Program-made: the position numbers and the translations under genes
DNA from: Pelagomonas calceolata
Lineage: Eukaryota
Length of the DNA: 64,000 nt
Reading direction: 5' to 3'
NCBI GenBank assembly: GCA_918797485.1
Contig: CAKKNE010000005.1
Location: 2,542,001-2,606,000 of the forward strand
Shown here: piece by piece, positions 1,817 through 62,307 of the stretch
Position numbering within the stretch: the first letter of the stretch is position 1
Layout of the letters: each line of letters opens with the position of its first letter
The notes under the pieces: model-generated
What the model was told of the DNA's origin: nothing
Databases searched by the model: none
Seen by the model: the letters and a program-made list of their open reading frames with translations, nothing else

Positions 1817-2030
1817 GCGACCCCTGTTCTCCCCCCTCCCTCTTCTTGACTGTTTGACAGTTTGCATCGGCAGCGCCGCCCTAGACGCCGCCCGTTCCGA
1901 AAGAAGCTTCCCCGCCCTACCTTCATCCAACCATTCGTAACTGCAGATTTCATGACCACTCCTAGTACTCCGCTGCATCAATAACTATGGGCCAGCGGAG
2001 CTTCGAAACACGAGGTGCATATTCTGTTGC

Positions 2031-2054
2031 TTTGCTTAGAGCTAGCCCGCCTAG
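2031..2054. repeat. 24-nt motif TTTGCTTAGAGCTAGSCCGCCTAG, copy 1 (convergent 3' intergenic region)
   Basis: 23/24 identical to 41068..41091. Confidence 0.6.
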
Positions 2055-2326
2055 TCTGTTCCGCTGGGGGAAAGACACCGCGCGTCGCCGATTCATCGCG
2101 CCGACCCGAACCAGGATCCCTACGAGTCGTGAATACACCTAGAGGGCGGCCGGCGTCTGGGGAAACCGACGGGATACGACTACAAAAGGCCAGCGGTGCC
2201 TGTCGTGGATCCGAAGCGGCATCAATATTGAAACTTCGGAGGAAGATGGATACCACCGAGTCCGAAATAGTAAGTAGCAAATTACTGCAGCGGACACGAG
2301 GGGGGTGGGGAAACGAAGCATATACA

Positions 2327-5300
2327 TCAAAAGTCGCCCGGCGCCGCCCGGCGCGGGCCGCGGAATCCGTCGTCCGGTGCCGCCCGGCTCGGTGGGCCGC
2401 GGTTGGGGGAGCCGAAGCCGTCGTCCGGTGCCGCCCGGCTCGGTGGGCCGCGGTTGGCGGAGCCGGAGCCGTAGTCTGGTGCCGCCCGGCGCGGCGGACC
2501 GCGGTTGAGCGGCGGCAACCGGCCCTGGCGGACGGGCGGGGCGCGCGGCGATTCCGCGTCGTAGGCGCGCCGTGGGGACTCGAGCGGCGCCGCCGCTGGT
2601 TCGATACGCGGCGTGGCGCGGCGCGAGGCCCAGCGCTCCGTCGTCAAACCTCCGCCCTGCGCGGCCTCGGCGACGGCCACGGCAGAAACCTTTCCTCGCC
2701 GCGTGCTCACGAGGTAGCCGCCGATGCCTGACAGGAGCATCAAAATAACAACTACCAACACCACAATGATGATGATAAGAGTGCCACCGCCCGAGTCGGA
2801 GCCGCCGCCGCCAGAGGCGGGGGCGGGGGCGGGGGCGGGGGCGGCGTCGTCGGCGGTGCCGTCGTCGTCGCCGACAGCGCCGCCAGGTGCCCCGCTCGAA
2901 GTTGTGGCCGTCGGCCGCGGGGACGGTTTTGTCGTCGGCCGCGGGGACGGCGCCGGCGAGGGCCTGGACGTCGGCCGCGGGGACGGCGCCGGCGTGGTGA
3001 CGACGAAGACGACCGTGGCCGCCGCAATCGCCGCGTACGTCGCCGTCACGTCCACGGTCACGGCGGCGAACGCGGAATCCGCGGCCTGCAGCGTGGTCAA
3101 GAAGCTCCCGTCGTCAATCGCCAGCGTCAGAGCGTCCATGGACTGCTCCAGCCTTTCCGCCGAGACTTGTTCGCCGTTATCCGTGCCGTCGATGCGGGCG
3201 ATGCCCGTGTACGAGATCGCGACGCCCGCGCCGCCGTCGTCGAGGCGCCGCCGCCCCGCGGCCACAATGTCTATGATCTCTTCGAAGAGACCGCCGGTGC
3301 TGTCCATGATCGACTGCGCGAACGCCGCCTGCCTGCCGGTCTTGTCGGCGTTAAACAGGACGGGGTTGACGCCCTCGAGCGTCACCGACGAAGCGACCTG
3401 GACCAGCGTCTGAGCTTGCGACGGCGCGGGGGTGGGGATGCGCGTCGGCCGGTGCGTCGGCGACGGCGACGGCGGCTCGGTCGTCGGCATTGGCGTGGGA
3501 ATGGGAGACGGCGCTCGCGTCGGTCGCGGCGTGGGCGTTGGCGTGGGCCGCGGCGTCGGAGCAAAGACCGGCGCCGCCGTGGGATTGCCGGGTAGGGGCG
3601 TCGGCGCCGGCGTGGGGGCCGGCGTCGGCCGGTGCGTCGGCGACGGCGACGGCCCCGGCGTGGTCGGCTGCGCCGTCGTGGGCGCCGGCGACGGCGCCGA
3701 CGTCGTAGGCCGAGGCGTCGGCTTCGGAGTCGGTCCGGGAGTCGGCGCCGTAGACGGCGCCGGCGAGGGCGGAAAGCCTACGACGACGTCCGCGTCGGCC
3801 GCGATCGTCGAGGCGGCGAAGTCGGTCAGATGCGTACACGCGCACGTCACGCCGGACGCCGTGTTCGCGACGACAGAACAGCCGTCGGAGGACCAGCTTC
3901 TCGTCACATTATCCCAGAACGAGCACGCGGCCGTCTTGGCGGGGCAGGTCACGGTGACGTCGAGCGGGACGCCGTCTCCCGAGTAAACGGGCGCCTCGAA
4001 GGTCATCGTCGACCCGTCGGGGAGCGTCACTTCGCGAGACTCCCCGCAGTCAAAGGTCGTGGGCACGTCGCAGTTGAAGGTCAGGACCTGGGACTGATTA
4101 AAGCACGTCTCCGTGTCCGTGCCCGGGTCGTAGTCGGCCTCGAGCGTCGGGTCGTAGTCGAACGGGATGTCGAACACGATGGGTTCGGCGAGATTGTCAA
4201 CCTTGACCGTGGCGCCTTCGCCGCCGAGTTCGATCTGCAGCAGATCCGAGACGGCGCCGTCGCCCTCAGAAGCGTGGACGTTCTTCAATTGGGCCACTTT
4301 CACGTCCACGTCGGCCGGCTCGCCGTCCAGGAGCCGTCGCCTCGAACGCCCGCGCCGCCTCGCGTCGGCGTCGCAGCTGCCGCCCCCGGCCTCGTCGAGG
4401 GCCGAGGCGGGCAGGTCCGTCACGCCGGCCCCGGAGGACAGTCGAAACGCCGCGTCCCGCGTCCCGCAGTCGGTCCGGAAGGCGCGCAGCTCCAGGTTGT
4501 CCGTGACGACGCTCTTGTTCTGGCCGCCGTAGGCGCCCGCGATCATGCCGGTGGCGAGGGCCCCCACCGTGCCGGCCATCTGCCCGTCTAGGGAGGTGTT
4601 CGACGCGCCCGACGCGAACAGGCTCGCATCCAGGAGGCTCGAGACGGTATCCGCCGCCGACGCCGCCGTGTCGTCGTCGATCCCATGTTTCGCGGCGTCG
4701 CCGACGACCTCGCCGAGCAGCCCGATCGCGCCCGTCTGCGAGCTCTCAGAGAGAGAGTCGGGGTCCCCGGTGAGCGTCGAGACAGTGAACAAGACTTGAG
4801 TCGCCGCCGCCGCGGACGAGCCCGTGCCCACCAGGCTCGCCGCGCTGATCGTGTGACCCATCAGGTCGTCGATCAGCTCCTGCTCGGAGGAAAGTCTCCG
4901 CCGACTCATGTCGGTCCCGCCTATGACGCTCGCCACGTTCGAGACCAGAGACAGCGACGCCTCGCCGTCGCCCGTGTTCGCCGACTCTGATAATAAATCG
5001 CCGGCGAGCGCCGAGAGGTCCTCGCCCGAGATCTCGAGCGGATCCACCCGCACGGGCGTGAAGGCTTGCGCGTAGGACAGGTAGCGGTCGAAGACGCGGC
5101 CGACGCAGGTGAGATTAACGTTGTTCGCCTGCGGCAGCGTCGTGACGAACCACGAGCTCGCGTACTGGTCCGCGACGAGCGGCGTCAAGGCCGAGTTCGC
5201 GGCCCGACGGTCCGCGAAGCTTGTCCCGCCCCCGCCGCCACGACTGCTGCCGCGCCTGCTTACCCGCTGGCGGTAGCTGTACGTGTACGTGAGCGGGTAG

Positions 5301-8300
5301 TCGTCGACGTCGTCGGACCAGCCGTCGAGCAGGAATTCAAACTCCGTCGTCAGCGCGGTGCCCCGGTACGGCGAGACGGCGAACGTGCCCGAGGTGGGCG
5401 GGCCGTTCGTCGTCAGGGAGACGACGGTCGAGGACGTCGACCCGATGCTGTCCGTGACCGTAAGTCTCAGCCGATACACGGCGTTGGGCCGCGTCTTGCC
5501 GAGGTCGATGAGCATGGGAGACGGTGCCCCGCTGGGCTTGCCGAGGAGGCCCGCCGACTGCCCGTCGCCGACGGACCAGGCGGTTTGCTCGATCGTTCTA
5601 GCAGAATCGGGGGACGTCGCCTTGAAGTAGATCGCCGTGAACGCGCCGTCCATGGGTTTGTACTTGACGCTCTCGTCGAAGTCCGTGATCGTCGCGCGGG
5701 GCATGTACTCGTCCGACGAGATTGACACCAGCACGCTGTAGGCCGCGCGCCGCGTGCCGCGCGAGACGGTCAGCGTGAATTCGTAGGTCGCGCCGCTCGT
5801 CCAGCCCGCGGCCGTCGTCGGCGTGAACGCGAGGACGGGTTGCGTCGCGTTTACGGAAGCGAGTAACGAGTTCGCGTCTTCCCTACTCCCGTCGTCCAGC
5901 ACGTGCGCCACGGTCCACGTGTATGCCATCGCGCCCTCGGCGTCGTTGTCGTCGGGGTCGTACGACTCGGACCCGTCCAGCTCGGCGTCGGCGCCGATCG
6001 CCACGGTCTGCTCGACGCCGCCCGATATCGAGGCCATCAAGTCCTGAGACCCGACGACGACCGTCGTAGTAGCGGAGTTGTTGATCGTCATGCTGTCCGC
6101 GAAGCCGACGGTCACCTGGAACTTGTAGGTCGTCTGCGCGTCCAGGGCGTCCGCCGGGAGGCGACACGTCACGGGGTTGGCGGTGTATTCCGCCAGTTTC
6201 GGGACGAGGTCTCGGACGTACGTCTCTCCCTCCAGCCGCCACGCGCGCCACACGTAGCCCAGCGCCGTGGACGACATGTTCGCGTCCGCGCAGGTCAGGT
6301 TGGGCAGGGCCACGTCGAGCTTGAGCGACTTTTTATCGGACCGGACCATGTTTTGCGTCGCGGCGCCCTGGAACTGGACGCCGGGCGCCGGCGAGGCCAG
6401 CTTGTGGACGGTCGCGGACACGGTCGTCGTCCCACCGAGAAAATTCGTCGCGGCGATGAGGAAGTCGTAGGCCCGACCTTCGAGGAGGTCGTCGAAGCCG
6501 AGGTCCAAGGTCACGGCGCCGGCGGCGTCGGCCTGTTGAAGCTTGGCCTCGAGCGCCGCCACGCTGGCCATGTCGGCGTCCGTCTCGGCGTCCCAGGTCG
6601 TCAGCACGCCCCAGTTGTACGTCAGAGCTCGCGAGCCACCACCCGTGGCGCCGCGCGCGTCGAGGACGACGCCGTCGCATTTGCCGACGCTCTCCGGCGC
6701 CGTGATGGAGATCGCCGGCAAGATGGGGTCCAGCGGCTTTTGGGCCTCGGCGTACTGGGCGGCGCTCGTGAGCGTCGCGCCGTCGAGGTCGTTCTTCAGC
6801 AGGCCGCCCTTGAGATGCGCGCTGTTGAGGGTCGTCGCGGCCACGTAGTCAAATGGCACGATCTGGGCGCCCGCGCCGAACGTTACGCGCAGCGCGCTCG
6901 AATTCGTCCAGGCGCACGTACCGTCCGCGCCGAATTGCTGCGCCGCGTACTCAAAGAGCGTGGCGCAATCAATATCCCACTCGCCGTCGATCATGTTCGT
7001 CGGGCTGTCGAAGAGCACGTCGAGGCCGTTGCCGCCGTCCAGGAACCGCACAAGTTCAAGCTTGGGCGGTGGCACACTATCTACAGAGAATTCGACAGCA
7101 ATCTCGACGTCTGAGACGGCGAGGTCGTCGAAGAAGGCGTCGGCGGATTCGACGTAATGCGTGAGTCTGGCCGTCCTGCCCTCCAAGACGTCTGGGTCTG
7201 CGAGAGAGGCGTTGACGGCCACGTACTTCCGAGCCCAGTCGTCCGGCGTGAACACGAGCCGCTTCGTGTAGAACACATTCGTGTCGGCGCAGTCGAGCGA
7301 CACGACGACGTTGGCCGTCGGCGGCGCGGAGAGCGTGATCCAGTAGCCGTCGCTGAACGTCGGACCGTCGACGCCGGCCCCGACCGTCAGCGCCTTGCCG
7401 CTCACGGTGGCGAAGGCGACGTCGTCCTCGATGACTTGGCACGTCATATTGGGCGAACGAACGCCGTCGTAGTTGGCGTCGGCAGAGCGCGCCACGAACC
7501 AGACGGAGTAGTTGCGGTCGCCGGATAATACAGCGTCGTCAGCAACGCGGAGAGTGTACGTCGCGAGCGAGGCCCAGTCGGCGGGCTCGACGGTCCGGTT
7601 CATTCCATCGGCACCGTCGACGGAGATGCTCTCGAACGCGTCGACGTCGCCCTCGACCTCGAGGCGCACGGCGGAAAACGGTAGGCTCGTCAGCGCCGCC
7701 GTGAAGACGAAGGTCGCGGCGTTCTCCTTTGCTTTCGCCGTGAGGGCCGCCGCGTCGGAGGTGACGGGGTCCGTCGTCGCCAGGAATTTGTTCACCGCGA
7801 TCAGCGACACGTCGACGTCCAGCACATTTACGGAAACCGTCTTCTCGAAGCCGCGCGCGCGGCCGTAGATCGGGTCCGTCGACGAGAGGAAGACCGTGAC
7901 GCTCTGGGCGACGCTGTCCCCGTTGTCGACGCGGTCCCGGAGCGCGCCGGCGGCGAGGGTAAGAATGGTGTCGCCGGCGGGGATCCACCTCGCGACGGAG
8001 GTGCTTCCGGCGTCCGACGTGAGCGCGTAGCCCGGGTTATCTGGGTCCTCGTCGTAGAAGCGGAGGGCACTGCCGGTCCGACCGCCGCCGCGCAGCGTCA
8101 ACCTCACGGGCTTGGTCGCCGGGACCGTGAGGTTGACGACCAGATGCTCTACTTTGAGACCCGTCCCCGTGAAGGCCGCCTCGGCCAGCTCCGGCGGCGC
8201 CGCCACCGAGAAGTCCGCGAGGCGGTAGTTTATGGTCGTCGGGGCGGTTGTAGGTACTGCCGACGGCGGCGAAGAGATCGTGGGCAGGCTCGTGGGCGCG

Positions 8301-11300
8301 GGCGTGGGCTCGGCCGTGGGCGCGGCCGTCGGCGCGGCCGACGGCGCGGCCGACGGTGCGGCCGACGGAAGCATCGTCATCGTCGGCGACGGGCTTGGTG
8401 ACGGCGTCGGCGCGGACGACGGCGCGGGCGACGGCTCGGCCGTCGAGGGGACAGGCGTCGGGGACGACGTCGGCAACGGCGAGGGCAAAGCCGACGGCGT
8501 CGCCGTCGTCGGATTGGGCGTCGGCTTGTGCGACGGCTCCGGAGAGGGATTAAGCGTCGGTCGCGGCGACGGCCGCGGCGTCGGCTTTTGCGACGGGTCC
8601 GCGGTCGGCGCGGGCGAGGGCCAGGGCGTCGGCGCAGGCGTAGGGCGCGACGACGGCGCCGGCGACGGTTTGGGCGTGGGCCGCGCCGTGGGCACAAATG
8701 AGGGCGCTGGCGTGGGCCGTGGCGTGGGCGTAGGTGTCGGGCGCGAGGACGGCGCCGGCGAGGGCTCCGGCGAGGGTCGTGGCGTCGGCGCAAACGAGGG
8801 CGCCGGCGTCGGTCGCGACGAGGGGCCCGGCGTCGGGCCCGGCGTCGGCGCAGGCGACGGCAGAGGCGTGGGCTTGGGGCTCGGCGCCGGCGTGGGTCTT
8901 GCCGTCGGCGCGAAGACGGGAGACGCCGTCGGGCTGCCCAGTGTGACCGACGGCGCGGGCGTAGGTCGTGTGGTCGGCCCCGGGCTCGGCGCCGTTGTTG
9001 GTGCGGGCGTAGGCCGCGGCGTGGGCATTGGGGTCGGCTTGCGCGACGGGGCCGCGGTCGGCGCGGGCGAGGGCCGGGGCGTCGGCGCAGGCGTAGGGCG
9101 CGACGACGGCGCCGGCGACGGTTCGGGCGTGGGCCGCGCCGTGGGCACAAATGAGGGCGCTGGCGTGGGCCGTGGCGTGGGCTTAGGTGTCGGGCGCGAG
9201 GACGGCGCCGGCGAGGGCTCCGGCGAGGGTCCTGGCGTCGGCGCAAACGAGGGCGCCGGCGTCGGTCGGGCCGACGGCCGGGGAGTCGGCCGGGCCGACG
9301 GTGCAGGCGTCGGTCGGGCCGTCGGCCGCGGCGTCGGCCGCGGAGTTGGTCTGTGCGATGGCGACGACGTCGGGGTCCCGGAAGGTCGCACGGTCGGGAC
9401 AGTTGACGGAATCGCGGTCGGCGCAGATATCGGGGACGACGTCGGAAGGGACGTGGGCGTGGCCGTCGGCGCGGCTGTCGGCGTGGACGTCGGGCGGGCC
9501 GTGGGCGTGGCCGTCGGCCTAGCCGTCGGAGCTGACGTCGGCATAGACGTCGGCGTCCACGTTGGATCGGATGTCGGCGTTGACGATGGCATGGCCGTCG
9601 TCGGCGCATCCGTCGGTATGGACGTCGGCGGCGCCGTAGGCTTGGCCGTCGGCACGACCGTCGGCACGATCGTCGGCGTAGGCGTCGGCGGCGCCGTAGG
9701 CTTGGCCGTCGGCACGACCGTCGGCACGATCGTCGGTGCGGACGTCGGAAGGGCGGTGGGCGTGGCCGTTGGCACGATCGACGGCACGATCGTCGGTATG
9801 GACGTCGGCGGCGCCGTAGGCTTGGCCGTCGGCACGACCGTCGGCACGATCGTCGGTGCGGACGTCGGAAGGGCGGTGGGCGTGGCCGTTGGCACGATCG
9901 ACGGCGCAGCCGTCGGTGTGTATGTTGGCGTCGACGTGGGCGTCGACGACGGCAGCGGCGAAGGAAGCAGGGTCGGCGGCTGCGTCGGGCTGGCCGTCGT
10001 CGGAGCGGGCGACTCCGCTGTCGTCGGCGCCGCCGTCGGGCCGAAGGTCCCGAGCTCGACGCGGCCGTCGTCGTCCCAGTCGCGCGCGACCGCGCCCGCG
10101 CGCGAGGCCACGTACGTGACCAGGGTCGCGGTCACGACCGCATCGCACGCAAACGCGCGGTTCGGCTTGGCCTCGTAGCTCCAGGGCTCGCCGTCCATCC
10201 GCATCGCGACGGCCATCGAGCTCGAGACGACCTTCGCGTCGCGCCAGACGCCCGCGAAGCCCTCGCGGAGGCCCTCGATCGCGGCGCCGCCGTCCATGTC
10301 CATCGTCAGGCTGTCGAACCCCATCAGGTCGGTGCTGTTCATGTCCACCGCGCCGTAGACGCACGACGTGCGCTCGTGGACCTCCTGTTCCGCCTTGAGC
10401 TCCGCCACGGTCGCCAGGCGCCGCCCGCCGGAGGTCGAACCCGTCGGCGTCGGGGTCGCAAACGGCGTCGACGACGACGGCGCGGCCGTCGTCGCGGCCG
10501 TTGGCGGGGACGTTGGAAGCGCTGTGGACTCAGTCGCCGGCTGGCGCAGGTCCCCTTCCCTCTGGAGCAGGAAGCGCTGCTGCAGCACCGTCCTCCCGTC
10601 GACGTCGACGTGTCCCCCGTAGCCAAGAGCGAAGCGGTCCGTGGCGTCGTCCTTGACCCAGTCGTGGTCGACGTGGACGAGGAAGCGCTCCCGCGCGGCT
10701 TCCAGGTCGGTCACCTTCATGCCGAGGACGTAGGCCACGCCCGATTCGTTGTGGTCGCTCCATTTTACTGTGCCCGTGACCGTCTCGTTGAGCTTCTCGT
10801 CGCCGTCAACGCGCAGCGCGAGCCCAAGCGAGCCAGCCATGGCCTCGTCCTGCGAGTCGCCGTCGGCGGTCATCGCCATGTGCAGCTTCTCGCGGTTCCG
10901 GTTGATGACCGTCATGCTGGCCTGCAGGTCGTCTCGATTCGCGTCGGTCATGCCGCTCCAGTCGACGGCGCCCGACAGATGGCCATCAAGCTTGTCGTCA
11001 GCGTCCGTTCGCACGAGTAGCCCAAGCGAGCCAGCCATGGCCTCGTCCTGCGAGTCGCCGTCGGCGGTCATCGCCATGTGTAGCCGTTCTCGCTGCTTGT
11101 TGATGACCGTCATGCTGGCCCGTAGGTCCTCCTCGGTGCCGCTCCAGTCGGCGGTGCCCGAGACCGTCGCATCGAGCTCCTCCTTTGCGTCGACGCGCAG
11201 CGCGAGCCCGAGCGAGCCAGCCATGGCCTCGTCCTGCGAGTCGCCGTCGGCGGTCATCGCCATGTGTAGCCGTTCTCGCTGCTTGTTGCTGACCGTCATA

Positions 11301-14300: not shown

Positions 14301-17300
14301 CCGTATGTCGTCTCGGCTCGGGTGCGTCGTGCCGCTCCAGTCGAGGCCGCCCGACACAAGGCCGTCGATCTCCTCCTCGTCATCGAGGCGCACGAGCAGC
14401 CCGAGGGCCGTCCTCTCGCGGAATCGCGAGTTGCCGTCCGCGGTCATGGCCATGTGCAGCTTCTCGCGGTTCCGGTTGCTGACCGTCATGCTGGCCTCGA
14501 GGGCGTCGCTCCAGTCGAGGCCGCCCGAGACGCGGCCGTCGAACTTCTCGTCCGCCTCAGCGAACAGAGCGAGCCCCAGCGAGCCTGACACGGCCTCGTC
14601 CTGCGAGTCGCCGTCCGCGGTCATCGCCATGCGGAACCGTTCTCGGTCCTTGTTGCTGACCGCCATGCGGACCCGTATGTCGTCTCGGCTCGGGTGCGTC
14701 GTGCCGCTCCAGTCGAAGCCGCCGGACACAAGGCCGTCGATCTCCTCCTCGTCATCGAGGCGCACGAGCAGCCCGAGGGCCGTCCTCTCGCGGAATCGCG
14801 AGTTGCCGTCCGCGGTCATGGCCATGTGCAGCTTCTCGCGGTTCCGGTTGCTGACCGTCATGCTGGCCTCGAGGGGCGTCGCCCAGTCGAGGCCGCCCGA
14901 GACGCGGCCGTCGAACTTCTCGTCCGCCTCAGCGAACAGAGCGAGCCCCAGCGAGCCTGACACGGCCTCGTCCTGCGAGTCGCCGTCCGCGGTCATCGCC
15001 ATGCGGAACCGTTCTCGGTCCTTGTTGCTGACCGCCATGCGGACCCGTATGTCGTCTCGGCTCGGGTGCGTCGTGCCGCTCCAGTCGAAGCCGCCGGACA
15101 CAAGGCCGTCGATCTCCTCCTCGTTATCGAGGCGCACGAGCAGCCCGAGGGAGCCGTCCCTCTCGCGGAATCGCGAGTTGCCGTCCGCGGTCATGGCCAT
15201 ATGCAGCTTCTCGCGGTTCCGGTTGATGACCGTCATGCTGGCCTGCAGGTCGTCTCGATTCGCGTCGGTCATGCCGCTCCAGTCGACGGCGCCCGACAGA
15301 TGGCCATCAAGCTTGTCGTCAGCGTCCGTTCGCACGAGTAGCCCAAGCGAGCCAGCCATGGCCTCGTCCTGCGAGTCGCCGTCGGCGGTCATCGCCATGT
15401 GTAGCCGTTCTCGCTGCTTGTTGATGACCGTCATGCTGGCCCGTAGGTCCTCCTCCGTGCCGCTCCAGTCGGCGGTGCCCGAGACCGTCGCATCGAGCTG
15501 CTCCTTTGCGTCGACGCGCAGCGCGAGCCCGAGCGAGCCAGCCATGGCCTCGTCCTGCGAGTCGCCGTCGGCGGTCATGGCCATATGCAGCTTCTCGCGG
15601 TTCCGGTTGATGACCGTCATGCTGGCCTGCAGGTCGTCTCGATTCGCGTCGGTCATGCCGCTCCAGTCGACGGCGCCCGACAGATGGCCATCAAGCTTGT
15701 CGTCAGCGTCCGTTCGCACGAGTAGCCCGAGCGAGCCAGCCATGGCCTCGTCCTGCGAGTCGCCGTCGGCGGTCATGGCCATATGCAGCTTCTCGCGGTT
15801 CCGGTTGATGACCGTCATGCTGGCCTGCAGGTCGTCTCGATTCGCGTCGGTCATGCCGCTCCAGTCGACGGCGCCCGACAGATGGCCATCAAGCTTGTCG
15901 TCAGCGTCCGTTCGCACGAGTAGCCCAAGCGAGCCAGCCATGGCCTCGTCCTGCGAGTCGCCGTCGGCGGTCATCGCCATGTGTAGCCGTTCTCGCTGCT
16001 TGTTGATGACCGTCATGCTGGCCCGTAGGTCCTCCTCCGTGCCGCTCCAGTCGGCGGTGCCCGAGACCGTCGCATCGAGCTGCTCCTTTGCGTCGACGCG
16101 CAGCGCGAGCCCGAGCGAGCCAGCCATGGCCTCGTCCTGCGAGTCGCCGTCGGCGGTCATGGCCATATGCAGCTTCTCGCGGTTCCGGTTGATGACCGTC
16201 ATGCTGGCCTGCAGGTCGTCTCGATTCGCGTCGGTCATGCCGCTCCAGTCGACGGCGCCCGACAGATGGCCATCAAGCTTGTCGTCAGCGTCCGTTCGCA
16301 CGAGTAGCCCAAGCGAGCCAGCCATGGCCTCGTCCTGCGAGTCGCCGTCGGCGGTCATTGCCATGTGCAGCCGTTCTTGGTCCTTGTTGCTGACCGTCAT
16401 GCTGGCCCGTAGGTCCGTCTGATCCGCGTCCTCCGTGCCGCTCCAGTCGAAGCTGCCTGACACAAGGCCGTCGACCTCGTTCTCGTTATCGACGCGCACG
16501 AGCAGCCCGAGGGAGCCGTCCCTCTCGCGGAATCGCGAGTTGCCGTCCGCGGTCATCGCCATGTGGACCTTCTCTCTACCCTCGTTGCTGACCGTCATGC
16601 GGGCCTCCAGGGCGTCGCTCCAGTCGAGGCCGCCCGACACAAGGCCGTCGAACTTCTCGTCAGCGTCGACGCGCAGCGCGAGCCTGAGCGAGCCCTCCCT
16701 AGCCTTGTTTCGCGAGTCGCCGTCGGCGGTCATTGCCATGTGCAGCCGTTCCCGCTGCTTGTTGATGACCGTCATGCTGGCCCGTAGGTCCTCCTCCGTG
16801 CCGCTCCAGTCGGCGGTGCCCGAGACCGTCGCATCGAGCTGCTCCTTTGCGTCGACGCGCAGCGCGAGCCCGAGCGAGCCAGCCATGGCCTCGTCCTGCG
16901 AGTCGCCGTCGGCGGTCATGGCCATATGCAGCTTCTCGCGGTTCCGGTTGATGACCGTCATGCTGGCCTGCAGGTCGTCTCGATTCGCGTCGGTCATGCC
17001 GCTCCAGTCGACGGCGCCCGACAGATGGCCATCAAGCTTGTCGTCAGCGTCCGTTCGCACGAGTAGCCCAAGCGAGCCAGCCATGGCCTCGTCCTGCGAG
17101 TCGCCGTCGGCGGTCATCGCCATGTGTAGCCGTTCTCGCTGCTTGTTGATGACCGTCATGCTGGCCCGTAGGTCCTCCTCCGTGCCGCTCCAGTCGGCGG
17201 TGCCCGAGACCGTCGCATCGAGCTGCTCCTTTGCGTCGACGCGCAGCGCGAGCCCGAGCGAGCCAGCCATGGCCTCGTCCTGCGAGTCGCCGTCGGCGGT

Positions 17301-20300
17301 CATGGCCATATGCAGCTTCTCGCGGTTCCGGTTGATGACCGTCATGCTGGCCTGCAGGTCGTCTCGATTCGCGTCGGTCATGCCGCTCCAGTCGACGGCG
17401 CCCGACAGATGGCCATCAAGCTTGTCGTCAGCGTCCGTTCGCACGAGTAGCCCAAGCGAGCCAGCCATGGCCTCGTCCTGCGAGTCGCCGTCGGCGGTCA
17501 TTGCCATGTGCAGCCGTTCTTGGTCCTTGTTGCTGACCGTCATGCTGGCCCGTAGGTCCTCCTCCGTGCCGCTCCAGTCGGCGGTGCCCGAGACCGTCGC
17601 ATCGAGCTGCTCCTTTGCGTCGACGCGCAGCAGCGAGCCCGAGCGAGCCAGCCATGGCCTCGTCCTGCGAGTCGCCGTCGGCGGTCATGGCCATATGCAG
17701 CTTCTCGCGGTTCCGGTTGATGACCGTCATGCTGGCCTGCAGGTCGTCTCGATTCAAGGCGTCGGTCATGCCGCTCCAGTCGACGGCGCCCGACAGATGG
17801 CCATCAAGCTTGTCGTCAGCGTCCGTTCGCACGAGTAGCCCAAGCGAGCCAGCCATGGCCTCGTCCTGCGAGTCGCCGTCGGCGGTCATTGCCATGTGCA
17901 GCCGTTCTTGGTCCTTGTTGCTGACCGTCATGCTGGCCCGTAGGTCCTCCTCCGTGCCGCTCCAGTCGGCGGTGCCCGAGACCGTCGCATCGAGCTGCTC
18001 CTTTGCGTCGACGCGCAGCGCGAGCCCGAGCGAGCCAGCCATGGCCTCGTCCTGCGAGTCGCCGTCGGCGGTCATGGCCATATGCAGCTTCTCGCGGTTC
18101 CGGTTGATGACCGTCATGCTGGCCTGCAGGTCGTCTCGATTCGCGTCGGTCATGCCGCTCCAGTCGACGGCGCCCGACAGATGGCCATCAAGCTTGTCGT
18201 CAGCGTCCGTTCGCACGAGTAGCCCAAGCGAGCCAGCCATGGCCTCGTCCTGCGAGTCGCCGTCGGCGGTCATCGCCATGTGTAGCCGTTCTCGCTGCTT
18301 GTTGATGACCGTCATGCTGGCCCGTAGGTCCTCCTCCGTGCCGCTCCAGTCGGCGGTGCCCGAGACCGTCGCATCGAGCTGCTCCTTTGCGTCGACGCGC
18401 AGCGCGAGCCCGAGCGAGCCAGCCATGGCCTCGTCCTGCGAGTCGCCGTCGGCGGTCATGGCCATATGCAGCTTCTCGCGGTTCCGGTTGATGACCGTCA
18501 TGCTGGCCTGCAGGTCGTCTCGATTCGCGTCGGTCATGCCGCTCCAGTCGACGGCGCCCGACAGATGGCCATCAAGCTTGTCGTCAGCGTCCGTTCGCAC
18601 GAGTAGCCCAAGCGAGCCAGCCATGGCCTCGTCCTGCGAGTCGCCGTCGGCGGTCATCGCCATGTGTAGCCGTTCTCGCTGCTTGTTGATGACCGTCATG
18701 CTGGCCCGTAGGTCCGTCTGATCCGCGTCCTCCGTGCCGCTCCAGTCGAAGCTGCCTGACACAAGGCCGTCGACCTCGTTCTCGTTATCGACGCGCACGA
18801 GCAGCCCGAGGGAGCCGTCCCTCTCGCGGAATCGCGAGTTGCCGTCCGCGGTCATCGCCATGTGGACCTTCTCTCTACCCTCGTTGCTGACCGTCATGCG
18901 GGCCTCCAGGGCGTCGCTCCAGTCGAGGCCGCCCGACACAAGGCCGTCGAACTTCTCGTCAGCGTCGACGCGCAGCGCGAGCCTGAGCGAGCCCTCCCTA
19001 GCCTTGTTTCGCGAGTCGCCGTCGGCGGTCATTGCCATGTGCAGCCGTTCCCGCTGCTTGTTGCTGACCGTCATGCTGGCCCGTAGGTCCGTCTGATCCG
19101 CGTCCTCCGTGCCGCTCCAGTCGAAGCTGCCTGACACAAGGCCGTCGACCTCGTTCTCGTTATCGACGCGCACGAGCAGCCCGAGGGAGCCGTCCCTCTC
19201 GCGGAATCGCGAGTTGCCGTCCGCGGTCATCGCCATGTGGACCTTCTCTCTACCCTCGTTGCTGACCGTCATGCGGGCCTCCAGGGCGTCGCTCCAGTCG
19301 AGGCCGCCCGACACAAGGCCGTCGAACTTCTCGTCAGCGTCGACGCGCAGCGCGAGCCCGAGCGAGCCCTCCCTAGCCTTGTTTCGCGAGTCGCCGTCGG
19401 CGGTCATTGCCATGTGCAGCCGTTCTTGGTCCTTGTTGCTGACCGTCATGCTGGCCCGTAGGTCCGTCTGATCCGCGTCCTCCGTGCCGCTCCAGTCGAA
19501 GCTGCCTGACACAAGGCCGTCGACCTCGTTCTCGTTATCGACGCGCACGAGCAGCCCGAGGGAGCCGTCCCTCTCGCGGAATCGCGAGTTGCCGTCCGCG
19601 GTCATCGCCATGTGGACCTTCTCTCTACCCTCGTTGCTGACCGTCATGCGGGCCTCCAGGGCGTCGCTCCAGTCGAGGCCGCCCGACACAAGGCCGTCGA
19701 ACTTCTCGTCAGCGTCGACGCGCAGCGCGAGCCTGAGCGAGCCCTCCCTAGCCTTGTTTCGCGAGTCGCCGTCGGCGGTCATTGCCATGTGCAGCCGTTC
19801 CCGCTGCTTGTTGCTGACCGTCATGCTGGCCCGTAGGTCCGTCTGATCCGCGTCCTCCGTGCCGCTCCAGTCGAAGCTGCCTGACACAAGGCCGTCGACC
19901 TCGTTCTCGTTATCGACGCGCACGAGCAGCCCGAGGGAGCCGTCCCTCTCGCGGAATCGCGAGTTGCCGTCCGCGGTCATCGCCATGTGGACCTTCTCTC
20001 TACCCTCGTTGCTGACCGTCATGCGGGCCTCCAGGGCGTCGCTCCAGTCGAGGCCGCCCGACACAAGGCCGTCGAACTTCTCGTCAGCGTCGACGCGCAG
20101 CGCGAGCCCGAGCGAGCCCCTCCTAGCCTTGTTTCGCGAGTCGCCGTCGGCGGTCATTGCCATGTGCAGCCGTTCCCGCTGCTTGTTGCTGACCGTCATG
20201 CTGGCCCGTAGGTCCGTCTGATCCGCGTCCTCCGTGCCGCTCCAGTCGAAGCTGCCTGACACAAGGCCGTCGACCTCGTTCTCGTTATCGACGCGCACGA

Positions 20301-23300
20301 GCAGCCCGAGGGAGCCGTCCCTCTCGCGGAATCGCGAGTTGCCGTCCGCGGTCATCGCCATGTGGACCTTCTCTCTACCCTCGTTGCTGACCGTCATGCG
20401 GGCCTCCAGGGCGTCGCTCCAGTCGAGGCCGCCCGAGACGCGGCCGTCGAACTTCTCGTCAGCGTCGACGCGCAGCGCGAGCCCGAGCGAGCCCTCCCTA
20501 GCCTTGTTTCGCGAGTCGCCGTCGGCCGTCATTGCCATGTGCAGCCGTTCCCGCTGCTTGTTGCTGACCGTCATGCTGGCCCGTAGGTCCGTCTGATCCG
20601 CGTCCTCCGTGCCGCTCCAGTCGAAGCTGCCTGACACAAGGCCGTCGACCTCGTTCTCGTTATCGACGCGCACGAGCAGCCCGAGGGAGCCGTCCCTCTC
20701 GCGGAATCGCGAGTTGCCGTCCGCGGTCATCGCCATGTGGACCTTCTCTCTACCCTCGTTGCTGACCGTCATGCGGGCCTCCAGGGCGTCGCTCCAGTCG
20801 AGGCCGCCCGACACAAGGCCGTCGAACTTCTCGTCAGCGTCGACGCGCAGCGCGAGCCCGAGCGAGCCCTCCCTAGCCTTGTTTCGCGAGTCGCCGTCGG
20901 CGGTCATTGCCATGTGCAGCCGTTCCCGCTGCTTGTTGCTGACCGTCATGCTGGCCCGTAGGTCCGTCTGATCCGCGTCCTCCGTGCCGCTCCAGTCGAA
21001 GCTGCCTGACACAAGGCCGTCGACCTCGTTCGTTATCGACGGCAAGCGCACGAGCAGCCCGAGGGAGCCGTCCCTCTCGCGGAATCGCGAGTTGCCGTCC
21101 GCGGTCATCGCCATGTGGACCTTCTCTCTACCCTCGTTGCTGACCGTCATGCGGGCCTCCAGGGCGTCGCTCCAGTCGAGGCCGCCCGACACAAGGCCGT
21201 CGAACTTCGTCAGCGTCGACGCGCAGCGCGAGCCTGAGCGAGCCTCCCTAGCCTTGTTTCGCGAGTCGCCGTCGGCGGTCATTGCCATGTGCAGCCGTTC
21301 CCGCTGCTTGTTGCTGACCGTCATGCTGGCCCGTAGGTCCGTCTGATCCGCGTCCTCCGTGCCGCTCCAGTCGAAGCTGCCTGACACAAGGCCGTCGACC
21401 TCGTTCTCGTTATCGACGCGCACGAGCAGCCCGAGGGAGCCGTCCCTCTCGCGGAATCGCGAGTTGCCGTCCGCGGTCATCGCCATGTGGACCTTCTCTC
21501 TACCCTCGTTGCTGACCGTCATGCGGGCCTCCAGGGCGTCGCTCCAGTCGAGGCCGCCCGACACAAGGCCGTCGAACTTCTCGTCAGCGTCGACGCGCAG
21601 CGCGAGCCCGAGCGAGCCCTCCCTAGCCTTGTTTCGCGAGTCGCCGTCGGCGGTCATTGCCATGTGCAGCCGTTCCCGCTGCTTGTTGCTGACCGTCATG
21701 CTGGCCCGTAGGTCCGTCTGATCCGCGTCCTCCGTGCCGCTCCAGTCGAAGCTGCCTGACACAAGGCCGTCGACCTCGTTCTCGTTATCGACGCGCACGA
21801 GCAGCCCGAGGGAGCCGTCCCTCTCGCGGAATCGCGAGTTGCCGTCCGCGGTCATCGCCATGTGGACCTTCTCTCTACCCTCGTTGCTGACCGTCATGCG
21901 GGCCTCCAGGGCGTCGCTCCAGTCGAGGCCGCCCGAGACGCGGCCGTCGAACTTCTCGTCAGCGTCGACGCGCAGCGCGAGCCCGAGCGAGCCCTCCCTA
22001 GCCTTGTTTCGCGAGTCGCCGTCGGCAGTCATTGCCATGTGCAGCCGTTCCCGCTGCTTGTTGCTGACCGTCATGCTGGCCCGTAGGTCCGTCTGATCCG
22101 CGTCCTCCGTGCCGCTCCAGTCGAAGCTGCCTGACACAAGGCCGTCGACCTCGTTCTCGTTATCGACGCGCACGAGCAGCCCGAGGGAGCCGTCCCTCTC
22201 GCGGAATCGCGAGTTGCCGTCCGCGGTCATCGCCATGTGGACCTTCTCTCTACCCTCGTTGCTGACCGTCATGCGGGCCTCCAGGGCGTCGCTCCAGTCG
22301 AGGCCGCCCGACACAAGGCCGTCGAACTTCTCGTCAGCGTCGACGCGCAGCGCGAGCCCGAGCGAGCCCTCCCTAGCCTTGTTTCGCGAGTCGCCGTCGG
22401 CGGTCATTGCCATGTGCAGCCGTTCCCGCTGCTTGTTGCTGACCGTCATGCTGGCCCGTAGGTCCGTCTGATCCGCGTCCTCCGTGCCGCTCCAGTCGAA
22501 GCTGCCTGACACAAGGCCGTCGACCTCGTTCTCGTTATCGACGCGCACGAGCAGCCCGAGGGAGCCGTCCCTCTCGCGGAATCGCGAGTTGCCGTCCGCG
22601 GTCATCGCCATGTGGACCTTCTCTCTACCCTCGTTGCTGACCGTCATGCGGGCCTCCAGGGCGTCGCTCCAGTCGAGGCCGCCCGAGACGCGGCCGTCGA
22701 ACTTCTCGTCAGCGTCGACGCGCAGCGCGAGCCCGAGCGAGCCCCTAGCCTTGTTTCGCGAGTCGCCGTCGGCAGTCATTGCCATGTGCAGCCGTTCCCG
22801 CTGCTTGTTGCTGACCGTCATGCTGGCCCGTAGGTCCGTCTGATCCGCGTCCTCCGTGCCGCTCCAGTCGAAGCTGCCTGACACAAGGCCGTCGACCTCG
22901 TTCTCGTTATCGACGCGCACGAGCAGCCCGAGGGAGCCGTCCCTCTCGCGGAATCGCGAGTTGCCGTCCGCGGTCATCGCCATGTGGACCTTCTCTCTAC
23001 CCTCGTTGCTGACCGTCATGCGGGCCTCCAGGGCGTCGCTCCAGTCGAGGCCGCCCGACACAAGGCCGTCGAACTTCTCGTCAGCGTTGACGCGCAGCGC
23101 GAGCCCGAGCGAGCCCTCCCTAGCCTTGTTTCGCGAGTCGCCGTCGGCGGTCATTGCCATGTGCAGCCGTTCCCGCTGCTTGTTGCTGACCGTCATGCTG
23201 GCCCGTAGGTCCGTCTGATCCGCGTCCTCCGTGCCGCTCCAGTCGAAGCTGCCTGACACAAGGCCGTCGACCTCGTTCTCGTTATCGACGCGCACGAGCA

Positions 23301-25533
23301 GCCCCATGGAGCCAGCCATAGCCTCGTCCTGCGAGTCCCCGTCGGCGGTCATCGCCATGTGTAGCCGTTCCCGCTGCTTGTTGCTGACCGTCATGCTGGC
23401 CCATAGGTCCGTCTGATTCGCGTCGGTCATGCCGCTCCAGTCGACGGCGCCCGACAGATGGCCATCAAGCTTGTCGTCAGCGTCCGTTCGCACGAGTAGC
23501 CCAAGCGAGCCAGCCATGGCCTCGTCCTGCGAGTCGCCGTCGGCGGTCATCGCCATGTGTAGCCGTTCTTGGTCCTTGTTGATGACCGTCATGCTGGCCT
23601 GGAGGTCCGTCTGATCCGCGTCCTCCGTGCCGCTCCAGTCGACGGCGCCCGAGACCGTCGCATCAAGCTCCTCCTTTGCGTCGACGCGCACGGTTAGGGA
23701 CGTTAGGCCCGAGGCTCTTTTTCCGCTCGCCGCGCCATCCGCGACGAAATCGGCGCGGAGCAGCTCTCCCCCCTTGTCGCTGATGTTCAAGTAGGATTCG
23801 AGGGCTGGGCGCCCGGGCTCGCCGACGAAACCGCGGGCCTCGACGGCGACGAAGCGGGGCCTGGCCGACTTGGCGTCCTCGAGCCGCCCCAGGACCGCGT
23901 TGCCGTCCGCCGTGTCGAAGACGGCGCGCCAGTCCACCTTCGTCCTGTTCGCCGTGGGGTCCACGACCTCGAGGTGGGCGCAGAACGCGCCCTTGGCCGA
24001 GATGCACAACTTGCAGTCGAGCGAGTCGTCCCAGATCATCGGCTGGCAGCCGGCGTCGCGCGGGCAGCTCCGCTCGAAGAGGCCGGGGGCGGCGGCGGTG
24101 CGGAGGCGCCGGCGCCCGCGCGGCGCCCCGCGCGGCAGGACGCGCGCCCGCGCCTCGGGCGTCGCGACGTCGAGCGCGTGGTCGCCGGCGAGCGCGCCGA
24201 GGAACGTCGCGGCGTCCATGCGCGTGCGGACCCGGAGCTCGCGCCGCAGGAGCTGGTGCTTGAGCGCGCGCTTCGCCCGGCCGTCGTCGTCGGTGGCGCG
24301 CAGGACGAGCGGCCCGCACGCGGCGGCGCGCGGGCTCGCGCACGCGGTTCCCAGCGCGCCGCGGCGCAGGTCGACCTCGAAGGCGGCGAGCTCGACGCGC
24401 GCCGCCGCCGCCGCGGCGTCCGTCTCGTTGAGCGCCGGCAGCAGCGCGTCGACCGCGACCGCCGGCACCGCGAGGACGACGCGGTCGACCGCTGGAGGCA
24501 GCGCCACGGCGAACGCGGGCGGCGCGTACGCGAGCGCCGCGCTGTCCTCGCGCCACTCGGGCTCGACGCGCGCGAGCTCCCGCACGACCTCGCGCAGCGT
24601 CCGCGCGACGCGCCGGATCGGGTCGGTCGCGTCGATGGTCTCGGGGGCGGCGACGACGCCGGCGTCGGCGTCGGCACCGGGGGCGGCGGCGGCACCGGGG
24701 GCGGCGGCGGCACCGGGGGCGGCGGCGGCGCTGTCGGCGCCGGCGCTGTCGGCAGCGCCCTTGGCGCCGGCGCCGGCGCCGCGCCAGGACGCGCGGACGC
24801 CGCGGAGCAGCACCTCGACGGGCAGCGCATGCCAGAGCCGCGTTCGCGTCCGCACGTCGCAGACCAGGCGCGCGCCGGCGAGGTCCTCGGGGCGGTGCAG
24901 GCGCCGCAGCTGGTCGAAGTCGATGCGGTGGAGGCGCAGGTCGACGCGCCGGCGCGTGCGCTCGCGCGCGGACACCAGCGGCCACGCGCGGCCCGGCTGG
25001 GCCGAGAGGCGCCCGGCGCGCGCGAAGTCCTCGCCGGCGAAGCGCAGATCGACGGCGCAGTCGGCGGCGGTCACGACGACCTCGTGGAGCGTGGACCGGA
25101 GGAACTGCGGCTTCGCGTCGACGGCGACGACGACGTCGCGCCCCTCGAGGGTCACGCGCGCGACGGCGCCGGCCGCGCCGAGGCCGCGCGCCGCGAGCGC
25201 CGCGAGCCAGATCACGGGCACGAGCGACGCCAGCGCCGCGACGACGACCGCCGCCGTCGCGATGGTCAGGGGGCGCCGGCGCGCCGCCCTCAGCGCCCGG
25301 CGCGCGCGCGACCGCGGCGGCGGCGGCCGCGCGGCGACGAGGCCGGCCTCCTCGATCAGGTCGCCGGACCGGCCCGACTTCCGCGCGACCTCGAGGGGCT
25401 GCGCCGCCTCGCCGGGGTCGACGGCGCCCGCCGCGGCCGACTTGCGCGCGACCTCGAGGGGCTGCCCCTCCTCGGCCGCCGCCCCGCCGGGCGCGACGGC
25501 AGCCCGCTGCCGCCAGGGCGCGAGCACTCTCAT
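2327..25533 (-). CDS. Giant polycystin-1-like surface protein (~7,730 aa): N-terminal TM, ~70 beta-strand repeats, Pro/Thr stalks, REJ, GAIN/GPS, C-terminal TM; two +1 frameshifts
   Basis: ORFs 17428..25533, 14184..17543 and 2327..14218 join after removing single extra bases at ~17632 (cgcagcAgcgagccc vs repeat consensus cgcagcgcgagccc) and ~14234 (tgcgAagtcg vs tgcgagtcg). GPS motif CSFWD...WSSDGC...CACTHLTDF at ~3815-3930. REJ-like motifs ([49 protein letters not shown]) at ~4950-6720. TM segments at ~25190-25270 and ~2715-2785. Confidence 0.85.
2340..2510 (-). repeat. ~48-nt coding repeat in the cytoplasmic tail ([20 protein letters not shown], 3-4 copies)
   Basis: The translated tail reads [17 protein letters not shown] / [17 protein letters not shown] / [14 protein letters not shown] / [11 protein letters not shown]. 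Confidence 0.75.
3410..3775 (-). repeat. Pro/Thr/Ser (PT/PS) mucin-like stalk C-terminal to the GPS
   Basis: 12-nt periodic PTxxPTxx coding repeats. Confidence 0.8.
8232..10040 (-). repeat. ~600-aa Pro/Thr/Ser mucin-like stalk (PTxxPSxx tetrapeptide repeats)
   Basis: 12-nt periodicity with longer internal duplications, e.g. ~8600-8815 vs ~9050-9265. Confidence 0.85.
10790..23690 (-). repeat. Coding tandem array of ~70 units of 59-66 aa, organised as 375-nt and 384-nt higher-order repeats
   Basis: Unit consensus [56 protein letters not shown]. The 375-nt period is visible in antisense ORF starts 18734, 19109 ... 23231 and 12452 ... 15066. The 384-nt period is visible at 15301 vs 15685. Confidence 0.95.
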
Positions 25534-25640: not shown

Positions 25641-26284
25641 CGTCTTTTCGAAGCGCGCACCCACGGTTCTCAGGAGCCGCCCGGCCCCGCGGGCGCGTCC
25701 GGCGAGATGTCCGCCGGCTTTACGCTCGCAACAACCCGAGACCTCGGCCCCGCGCCCCTGGCGCGCGCGCGGCGCGCAAGTACTACCGCATGTGCTCCCG
25801 GGGATCCTGTCCCTCTCGGGGCCGCGCGAGTCCATACCGGGCCCCGGGCTCCCCGAGACGAACGCGAAGCTGGTCGCGCGGCGTGACGGACGCCTCGCGT
25901 ACTACGCGCAGCGCAGGGGGGGGGTGCCTCGGAACTCGTCCGGGGGGCCTCCGCCGGGCCGCGCAGCGCGGCCCGGAGACTCCTCTCGGGCGGAGGAGAC
26001 GCCGCCGCCCGACGCCGCGCGCCGCTTCCGGGACGCGAGCGCGGCCGGAGCCGTCCCGGCGCGGGGACCACAACATGCGGGGGTCGCGCTGATGCGTGCG
26101 AAACCGGGCCGGCCTCTGCTAGCCGCACGTGCGCTCCTGCCGCCGGGCCTTGTTTTTGGCAGCGCCAATCCTTGCCAGCTGCTCCAAAGGGCGGCCTCGC
26201 ACCTGTTTGCCCGTCGCCTCCACGCCCGCGGTGTGGGCGCTGAGCTGCCCTTGCTCTCACGCGGTCTCGGCTAGCCGGCTGCCC

Positions 26285-57550: not shown

Positions 57551-58400
57551 AAAGAAAATGGCCGCGATCCGGGCCGCGCAGAGACGAGCCGCTGCCGCGG
57601 CGCAGCACGAGCGCGCGGCACCGGAGTCGGCGTCGGCCGCGCAGGCGCCCGCCGCCCCGGCAACGCCGCCGCGGACCGCGACTATGACATGTTGGGCAAG
57701 TAGGCGATTCATCCTCGGCTACCTCGCAATTCAACGGGTCGACGGGCCTTCATTGGCGATGTTGACTCACCCCAGCAATTCAAGCTGCTTCCTTGTGTCG
57801 GCCCGCCCGGGTCCGTTGCCGTGTCGTGCGGGATATTTGGTGGGTGTGTCTTTCGTGACTCCCCATCAGGTCCCCGTGCGCGCGGCGACGAGGATACCTA
57901 GACTTCGGGGGCGGCCTTGGCGGCGGCACTCGGGCACGACTCCACGGAGCGGCGGTGCGGCGGGATCCCAAATACCTTGACTAGCTCTTGGTCGGGTCTC
58001 AAGCAAAGCGCCTTCGCGTCCGCGTTCAGCAGACTCAAGGTTGTGCGGCGGCGGTTCCCTTTTTTTTCCCGCACATCGCTGCACGACCTCTGCGACGAGT
58101 CCCCTGGGGCGGGGAGGGGTCCCGCAGGACCGCGCGCAAAAACCCGTCGGTTAAGCAGAGGCTAGGGCTAGGGCAATATTCGTTTTCAGCTCTGAACGTC
58201 GAGGTTCACTGCTTGCACTTTAGTCAGAGCAAGCAGCGCTGAAGCTCTGCAGTCAACGGCACCACTGATAACCGCACAACTACAGCGAGACCTCATACGC
58301 CGCCACCGAAGCGCCCTCAGCGCCACTGGTTTCAGACACTGACTTGGCGCATACAAATAGAGACGAGAAGCCTCGCTCAACCGCCAACGACGAGAGCACC

Positions 58401-62108: not shown

Positions 62109-62307
62109 GCCGGTGCGCGTCGGCGGCGTTGATGCTAAGCGATGCAGTCAGGCCCCAAGGTGCAGTGAGGTTCAGGTGCACGACGATTAGAGTTTCGTGC
62201 ACATGCTTCAAAGCACGCGTCGTGGCATCAAAAAGCAGTCTCTGGCCTAATTTCCTGGCGTGTAGCTGCAACGCGGAGGCGTTTTGAGGCACACGCTTCA
62301 CGCGCTT

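Follow-up and report, generated by a model that had tools for sequence, protein, structure and literature searches.

Can a 23-kb stretch of minus strand that falls into three reading frames encode a single protein, and what would such a protein do? The question is raised by a locus of the alga Pelagomonas calceolata (assembly GCA_918797485.1, contig CAKKNE010000005.1, positions 2,542,001 to 2,606,000 of the forward strand), of which we analysed 64,000 nucleotides as one window whose coordinates are used throughout. Between a start codon at 25533 and a stop codon at 2327, the window holds a real, expressed and very large gene of a known broad design that carries an undescribed repeat family. 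Three overlapping minus-strand open reading frames (ORFs) of 2,703, 1,166 and 3,973 residues fill this region, and their overlaps are located within a 12.7-kb tandem array. Read through with an X at each break, they give a stop-free translation of 7,734 residues, in which a hydropathy scan found two strong hydrophobic segments (residues 87–119 and 7576–7611) and two weaker ones (peaks 1.75 and 1.92) within globular parts. The window sequence bears out the start, the stop, and the order and rough sizes of the parts given in a preliminary description of this DNA, including the helix at either end. The parts are listed from the N-terminus to the C-terminus; where no other basis is named, they were read directly from the sequence.

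25276..25533, minus strand: N-terminal tail, residues 1–86, Arg-rich just before the helix, predicted to be cytosolic
25177..25275, minus strand: helix 1, residues 87–119, a predicted type II signal-anchor (Kyte-Doolittle peak 2.54)
24775..25176, minus strand: globular domain after helix 1, possibly LEA_2/DUF3712-like, as a lead only (ESM Atlas)
24103..24774, minus strand: Ala-rich linker, second globular region and first RXL-type motif (residues 474–477, window 24114–24103)
23743..24102, minus strand: Cys-bearing cap and degenerate strands leading into the array (E 7e-62 to the protein P0012)
10544..23742, minus strand: repeat array, residues ~598–4996, ~69 units of 58–67 residues with four strands each (anchor cutting, hidden Markov model or HMM)
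17508..17694, minus strand: unit 32 with frame break 1, one extra base near 17632 (comparison with near-identical sibling units)
14081..14258, minus strand: unit 50 with frame break 2, one extra base near 14234 (otherwise identical to four sibling units)
10043..10543, minus strand: short linker, second RXL-type motif (residue 5037, window 10423) and a post-array domain of ~125 residues (sequence, homologues)
8231..10042, minus strand: Pro/Thr/Ser/Ala stalk of 604 residues, with 204 Pro and 125 Thr (composition)
7100..8230, minus strand: Ig-like region with Calx-beta-like repeats of bacterial type (match to bacterial repeat proteins, E 7e-19)
4943..7099, minus strand: PKD-like Ig domains and REJ, with the REJ match at 6262–4943 (Pfam)
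3815..4942, minus strand: GAIN region with GPS at 3928–3815 and RXL-type motifs at 4903 and 4342 (Pfam, alignment)
2993..3772, minus strand: second Pro/Thr stalk (3772–3413) and a globular domain of ~140 residues (3412–2993), with an RXL-type motif at 3253 (kept in the homologue L002)
2699..2806, minus strand: helix 2, residues 7576–7611, followed by basic residues (Kyte-Doolittle peak 3.56)
2327..2698, minus strand: cytosolic tail of ~123 residues with 17-residue repeats, and the stop codon

Continuity of the reading frame and transcription

Judged against the near-identical siblings of unit 32, and against the four otherwise identical siblings of unit 50, either extra base is likely to be an assembly error. 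RNA and independent assemblies make a moderate case for the same conclusion, because the assemblies carry each joint within one ORF and RNA reads lack the base at the site homologous to break 1. No insertion was listed at that site in reads or DNA contigs, with about nine reads expected from three runs; the chance of having missed it is 0.08 if the listing threshold applies per run and 0.008 if it applies to the pooled reads. The 3-base insertion of unit 31 was not listed at its homologous site in the reads either (chance 0.001). A search for introns found no consensus-like intron that rescues either break. The earlier claim that no intron is needed holds only if both extra bases are errors, since each shifts the frame: the read-through is free of stops, whereas the window as assembled holds three ORFs.

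Nine further units, between 12388 and 22785, carry small insertions or deletions (indels) whose net length is divisible by three; four of these units share a similar deletion. These indels, like the deletions in units 47, 49 and 55, are either real variants or systematic errors. If the breaks themselves were real, the locus would be a decaying or split gene whose product would be limited to the 3′ part, from the late array through stalk, REJ and GAIN to the helix, with no N-terminal anchor. Such a gene would account for two breaks in the company of nine more indel-bearing units, and no read or contig spans the array. However, the third ORF lacks a signal sequence of its own, and the tested indels are not seen in reads.

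Transcripts bear on the same choice. Half or more of the words of 3800–8250, the REJ–GAIN part, are held by 20 of the 24 runs listed; eight are on record as RNA, including marine metatranscriptomes. Stranded polyA reads mapped to 9960–11263 cover the last units and the 3′ junction of the array in sense, leaving no bin empty when taken together, and the sense depth in run X21 is 7–19 at 10576–10795. The array and the C-terminal part are transcribed. Sense reads are drawn from 5′ and 3′ unit types alike, which argues against a split gene. The DNA run X9 has unit-type contigs 6–9 times deeper than unique ones, so that the array is real at about its present size.

Three observations weigh against an intact gene. 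Nine of the 11 indel-bearing units keep the frame (chance 0.0014), which random error does not explain; sense depth falls to 0–4 over the GC-rich stretch 9960–10530; and over 24050–25530 it stays under 2 in X21, X23 and X24, with zero in the bins of helix 1. The very thin sense coverage and the antisense RNA at the 5′ end would again suit a split gene. The GC content of 24050–25530 is 82%, a likely but unproven cause of the low sense depth there. Contigs of run X1 cover this N-terminal stretch at a depth of 8–11, compared with 4–6 in the flank.

Both halves of the protein have homologues in single ORFs. L002, from another species with ~76% DNA identity, holds one ORF of 3,055 residues containing five repeat units, the post-array domain, stalks, the Ig region, REJ, GPS and the last helix, and L001 joins the array to the Ig region in one ORF. 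Helix 1 is joined to the array in L003, P0044 and P0048, from the start codon to the first units in L003 and through ~20 units without interruption in P0048. The position of the start codon is common to L003, P0044, P0045 and P0054. Where P0044, P0047 and P0048 lose the frame, they do so at units other than those broken in the window. The ratio of nonsynonymous to synonymous substitution (dN/dS) lies between 0.24 and 0.73 in 13 of 13 segment comparisons, as obtained by simple counting on GC-rich codons with few changes in the N-terminal pairs; the helix 1 segment, with few changes, gives 0.36 against L003. The N-terminal part is thus in frame in five assemblies (L003, P0044, P0045, P0048, P0054) with dN/dS below 1, which speaks against a split gene, and we consider that alternative improbable. 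The locus very probably constitutes one gene. Homologous ORFs, purifying selection and RNA support the giant doubly anchored precursor with REJ and an intact GPS proposed earlier, although sense reads over its N-terminal anchor are very scarce.

Antisense transcription was observed at the opposite end from the covered junction:
23500..24150, plus strand: antisense polyA RNA over the start of the array (stranded reads)
Its depth in X21 is 15–53 over 23558–24052, most reads being identical to the locus. This RNA is deeper than the sense RNA in the same interval and has no clear coding frame, and antisense reads also derive from the 5′ unit type of the array. A 70-bp repeat piece at 11130–11199 is also present at the end of a 2,208-bp DNA contig of another locus, where transcription has the opposite sense and reads continue into unrelated sequence. 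P0047 and P0048, from other strains, share the 5′ dimer block but have another loop variant distributed over its copies, a sign of concerted evolution. In L002, positions 1400–2800 hold additional Tyr/Ser-rich repeats and small Cys-rich modules, placed between the post-array domain and the stalk; this region is therefore exchangeable. The cluster of the N-terminal region also includes P0046, a 295-residue piece assigned to a Deltaproteobacteria bin from a contig of 900 bp; it is probably contamination.

The repeat family and its predicted sheet

The giant β-repeat array had been described correctly: 68 repeat anchors delimit 67 full units, and the HMM finds 69. They are organised as three homogenised blocks with dimers of 375, 384 and 375 bp. 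At the DNA level, 41 of the 67 full units are distinct and one type is present nine times identically; the tree of units is mostly unresolved (8 of 61 branches well supported). Pfam matches of the array to DUF4754, Gemin6_C, AvrPto and others were rejected as artefacts of summing over repeats, because no stretch passes on its own. A PDB sequence search with the repeat profile gave nothing at E 1, and the ESM Atlas held no usable match for the repeat. A literature search, with most subscription journals and all supplements outside its scope, found no paper on the giant protein or its repeat. The repeat represents an unnamed family absent from Pfam and PDB, and it is the new part of the finding.

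A profile built on two-unit stretches matched 28 representatives among 1.84 billion. By inspection, these comprise 12 near-copies, one close paralogue or relative that has the N-terminal cap (P0012), 10 diverged sequences from uncultured marine eukaryotes, two proteins of Cymbomonas tetramitiformis, and three unrelated repeats (P0014, P0019 and P0023) that were rejected at a profile–profile probability of 2% or less. The Cymbomonas link has a profile–profile probability of 94% (E 1e-7, 97 columns, score 46), compared with controls of which three gave 2% or less and the reversed one 1%, while column shuffles scored at most 14. One further Cymbomonas protein was found beyond these two. In the Cymbomonas proteins P0055, P0030 and P0043, one loop of many repeat dimers holds a Pro-rich insert that includes an Arg run and an RXL-like site, so that the array of this alga may be cut into two-unit pieces. 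L004 and L005 gave matches of 45 residues (E ~5e-5). No relative was found in viral contigs with two queries. P0037 has ~15 diverged units followed by the post-array domain, a stalk and a C-terminal helix; as it lacks REJ and GPS, the REJ–GAIN part is an add-on to the array.

AlphaFold2 models six units as an all-β meander of 27 strands, four per unit and 9–14 residues long, with no helix of four or more residues in this low-confidence model (pLDDT 59, pTM 0.40). Greasy and polar residues alternate in every strand, here and in the relatives, and the β hydrophobic moment reaches a z of 7.8 here and 9.3–10.7 in three relatives, compared with 0.7 and 3.7 in two Ig-type controls. Trp is near-invariant at one edge of the sheet (in 16 of the 17 diverged units), both edges frequently carry Phe, and short acidic turns line one edge with longer loops on the other. 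Edge aromatics and such an asymmetry of turns and loops are the pattern of lipid-facing sheets. The outer face is acidic, with a net charge of −8 per 100 residues in the array here and −15 to −20 in the relatives. The array is predicted to form one open, one-sided amphipathic β-sheet: at the strand spacing of apoB, ~276 strands would give a ribbon ~140 nm long, or a closed belt ~45 nm across.

Structure comparison of the six-unit model gave the apoB100 belt as the top match in VIA-align (Z 15.1, root-mean-square deviation (rmsd) 10.3 Å, 341 residues aligned, 8% identity), and apoB100 also had the best TM-score in Foldseek, 0.44. Because the match is tied with a closed barrel and has only 8% identity, it shows only the shared meander. 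A wide structure search put membrane β-barrels first (Z 10–13). In a viral fold library, four rows at E 0.001 or less had TM-scores of 0.36 or less and were uninformative.

The barrel matches suggest that a released ribbon might curl with its greasy face outward and line, in a membrane or the perforated cell covering, either one very large pore of ~45 nm or a set of smaller barrels. Strands of 9–14 residues, short turns on one edge and edge aromatics would all suit a barrel, most structural neighbours are membrane β-barrels, and micropores of 10–12 nm exist in the pelagophyte theca (PMC12168098). The rmsd of the model to barrels is, however, mostly 14–31 Å (the very wide barrel SprA, 6.3 Å over 260 residues, stands apart), which suggests that the model is not closed, and variable unit counts fit a closed barrel poorly. 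We know of no barrel-insertion machinery in the secretory pathway, a further point against a pore, and this possibility appears very improbable.

Anchors, putative cleavage motifs and the proposed fate of the ribbon

Hydropathy of the N-terminal tail revealed no N-terminal signal peptide. Basic residues stand beside each helix, so the chain is predicted to have both ends in the cytosol. For the globular domain after helix 1, Pfam gave no match and the predicted fold has a pLDDT of 31. Its top ESM Atlas match, DUF3712 at 0.78, is under the 0.9 level and within the range of shuffled proteins. The position directly after a type II helix fits LEA_2/DUF3712, and the domain may be of this type.

In another reading, the ribbon curls into a continuous greasy groove that would carry lipid between the plasma membrane and an outer layer, like TamB or VPS13, with the LEA_2-like domain as its entry. 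One greasy face extends over ~276 strands, and the anchor is followed by a domain whose nearest Atlas match belongs to a family for which groove-type lipid binding is predicted (bioRxiv 10.1101/2021.03.12.435176). Several features do not suit a groove: the unit has four strands and no helix, compared with five strands and one helix in RBG proteins (PMC13036008); no part gives a Pfam match to chorein or AsmA; the DUF3712 score is one that shuffled proteins attain; and an RXL-type motif stands between the N-terminal domain and the array. We regard a lipid-carrying groove as improbable.

RXL-type motifs occur at residues 474, 5037, 6877, 7064 and 7427, at or inside domain borders; four further Arg-rich scan matches in the N-terminal 430 residues were not counted as such. 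The last four are kept in L002, and the first is also found in P0012 and P0048. In diatom surface proteins, proteolysis removes RXL motifs (PMC5525289), and by analogy the five motifs are putative cleavage sites. Those at 474 and 5037 bracket the array, which may therefore be cut free of both anchors. The earlier view of a loop cleaved into tethered pieces is accordingly doubtful for the array.

Both REJ and GPS had been recognised correctly, each exceeding its Pfam cut-off; together with a PKD-like domain, they are the Pfam matches of the third ORF. REJ (PF02010) matches with E 2.8e-40 and 139 bits against a cut-off of 25 (E 1.5e-37 in L002), and GPS (PF01825) with E 3.1e-09. Aligned to the GAIN structures of ADGRF1 and ADGRG3, both adhesion G-protein-coupled receptors (GPCRs), the GPS has the conserved Cys and Trp and an intact cleavage triplet, also kept in L002, with the predicted cut before the Thr codon at 3826. 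About 370 residues extend from REJ to the end of GPS, where a complete GAIN fold takes ~320, and the profile of GAIN subdomain A is weak (E 0.11). The halves of a cleaved GAIN domain stay associated, and a crystal of the uncleaved BAI3 GAIN is noted in the same source (PMC3321182). GPS is not directly before the C-terminal helix, as ~340 residues of stalk and globular domain lie between them. Pfam found no PLAT or channel domain in the C-terminal tail, and hydropathy found one C-terminal helix, neither an 11-helix channel nor seven transmembrane helices. A search with the REJ–GAIN part gave six matches, five via Calx-like repeats and one fish polycystin-1; none has the same architecture, which is a weak negative.

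The stalk predicted at ~600 residues measures 604, and the Ig/Calx-like region was likewise confirmed by its bacterial matches. The post-array domain matches P0035 directly after the array of that protein (pairwise E 2e-4). The preliminary description lacked this domain, the globular domain of ~140 residues, the five RXL-type motifs and the antisense RNA. It named five possible roles with no mechanism and overlooked the one-sided amphipathic character of the sheet; nothing in the present analysis speaks for an antiviral, anti-grazer or mechanosensory role. For the ~140-residue domain, a SEA label suggested by resemblance found no support, with no Pfam SEA match and no BLAST match to P0035.

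From these parts we propose, tentatively, that the gene product is a hairpin precursor whose amphipathic ribbon is delivered, likely set free, and comes to lie on lipid within the cell covering. The precursor would be inserted with both ends cytosolic, the N-terminal helix bringing the loop through to the lumen. Cleavage by a Golgi-type protease at the motifs of residues 474 and 5037 would release a ribbon of ~4,560 residues, which would coat or belt a membrane, a vesicle or a lipid particle in the cell covering, like the apoB belt. The part comprising stalk, Ig region, REJ and GAIN would be held at the C-terminal helix by the cleaved GPS strand and serve as spacer and breakable tether, rather than as channel or G-protein receptor. 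The least certain step is the contact of the greasy face with lipid.

A number of results weigh against this pathway and the sheet on which it builds. Confidence in the array model is low. In Foldseek against PDB no match reaches E 0.001, and the apoB match lies within 1 Z unit of the closed barrel FyuA (Z 14.5, rmsd 19.9). L003 and P0045 carry a changed form of the first RXL-type motif. Leu, Val, Met, Gly and Ala abound on the greasy face and aromatics are scarce there, a composition that also suits packing of sheet against sheet.

This last point leads to another reading, in which two ribbons, or two turns of a single ribbon, meet by their greasy faces to give a fibre or sheet free of lipid within the cell covering, for instance in the fibrillar or perforated theca layers. 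The greasy face with its small residues (Gly, Ala, Val, Met), the acidic outer face and the perfect tandem regularity, which suits a lattice, would fit such packing, and the pelagophyte theca is Golgi-built with fibrillar and perforated layers 12–80 nm thick (PMC12168098). On the other hand, the edge aromatics and the asymmetry of turns and loops look lipid-facing, and the repeat is not confined to pelagophytes, being present in the green alga Cymbomonas. We consider the self-paired fibre unlikely.

In its widest form the lipid-bound ribbon would make the array the first member of a eukaryotic repeat family, shared with Cymbomonas, that is cut free and wraps lipid or a membrane edge as a lipoprotein-like belt or pore of ~45 nm, an independent invention of the apoB principle at the surface of a protist. 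We find this possible but doubtful. The apoB belt has 120 strands and measures 61 × 4 nm (PMC11839476), and the predicted ribbon would be over twice as long. If it binds lipid, it would represent a second, unrelated route to an apoB-like belt, from a simple four-strand unit expressible alone. It would also give the covering of an abundant ocean alga a first candidate protein; the text consulted on the pelagophyte theca mentions no proteins (PMC12168098). Even without a lipid role, the repeat family spans distant algal lineages, with REJ–GAIN as a plug-in tether, as the comparison with P0037 suggests.

Neighbouring genes and known systems

The giant gene is flanked by paralogous genes at 2–1816 and 26123–28822 (plus strand), which share a C-terminal module of 120 residues with 75% DNA identity over 377 bp. 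The right one contains a Fea1 low-iron-inducible domain (E 3.8e-15), and a multicopper oxidase gene lies ~30 kb from it at 58272–60347 (plus strand). Both the Fea1 and the multicopper oxidase families are linked to iron uptake. An ORF at 60441–62147 (minus strand) joins a RING-variant domain to aspartate-semialdehyde dehydrogenase.

Adhesion GPCRs resemble the giant protein in having GAIN/GPS behind a long modular ectodomain, but the latter lacks a seven-helix domain on which the cleaved strand could act. The absence of a channel or of seven helices had been called unusual; it is not, as the sea-urchin proteins SpREJ1, 8 and 9 are single-helix REJ–GPS proteins (PMC1934368). They share with the giant protein one C-terminal helix and the absence of the PLAT and channel part, so that a channel is not needed. 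Ig/PKD-like domains, REJ and a GPS with an intact triplet are common to SpREJ1, 8 and 9 and to the brown-algal REJ–GPS protein Esi0130_0068 of Ectocarpus, which differs in having 6–7 helices (PMC4700764). Compared with the PKD1/REJ family, the giant protein adds an N-terminal anchor, an array of 4,400 residues and ~340 residues between GPS and helix, and it has neither PLAT nor a lectin head.

Outer-membrane β-barrels (FyuA, the OprD family, SprA, VDAC) share with the array the up-and-down meander, alternating faces, short turns on one edge and edge aromatics, whereas the array model is open and would belong to one chain of ~276 strands in a secretory-pathway protein. The RBG proteins VPS13 and ATG2, and TamB/AsmA, likewise place an amphipathic β-meander of rod length behind a membrane anchor. 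No RBG protein is among the PDB matches listed for the array model. The RBG unit comprises five strands and one helix (PMC13036008), and by its four-strand unit without a helix the array is not an RBG protein; it also lacks a chorein domain and is predicted to lie on the luminal or extracellular side.

With the apoB100 β-belt (PDB 9coo, 9bde, 9ea7; PMC11839476) the array is predicted to share a long continuous antiparallel sheet, strands of ~11 residues and one greasy face. Pfam found a vitellogenin-type N-terminal domain, as in apoB and the large lipid transfer proteins, in no part of the giant protein. The likeness is best understood as an analogy, not as family membership or homology, in which the array would stand apart by its strict four-strand tandem repeat, its ~276 strands compared with 120 and its membrane-anchored precursor.

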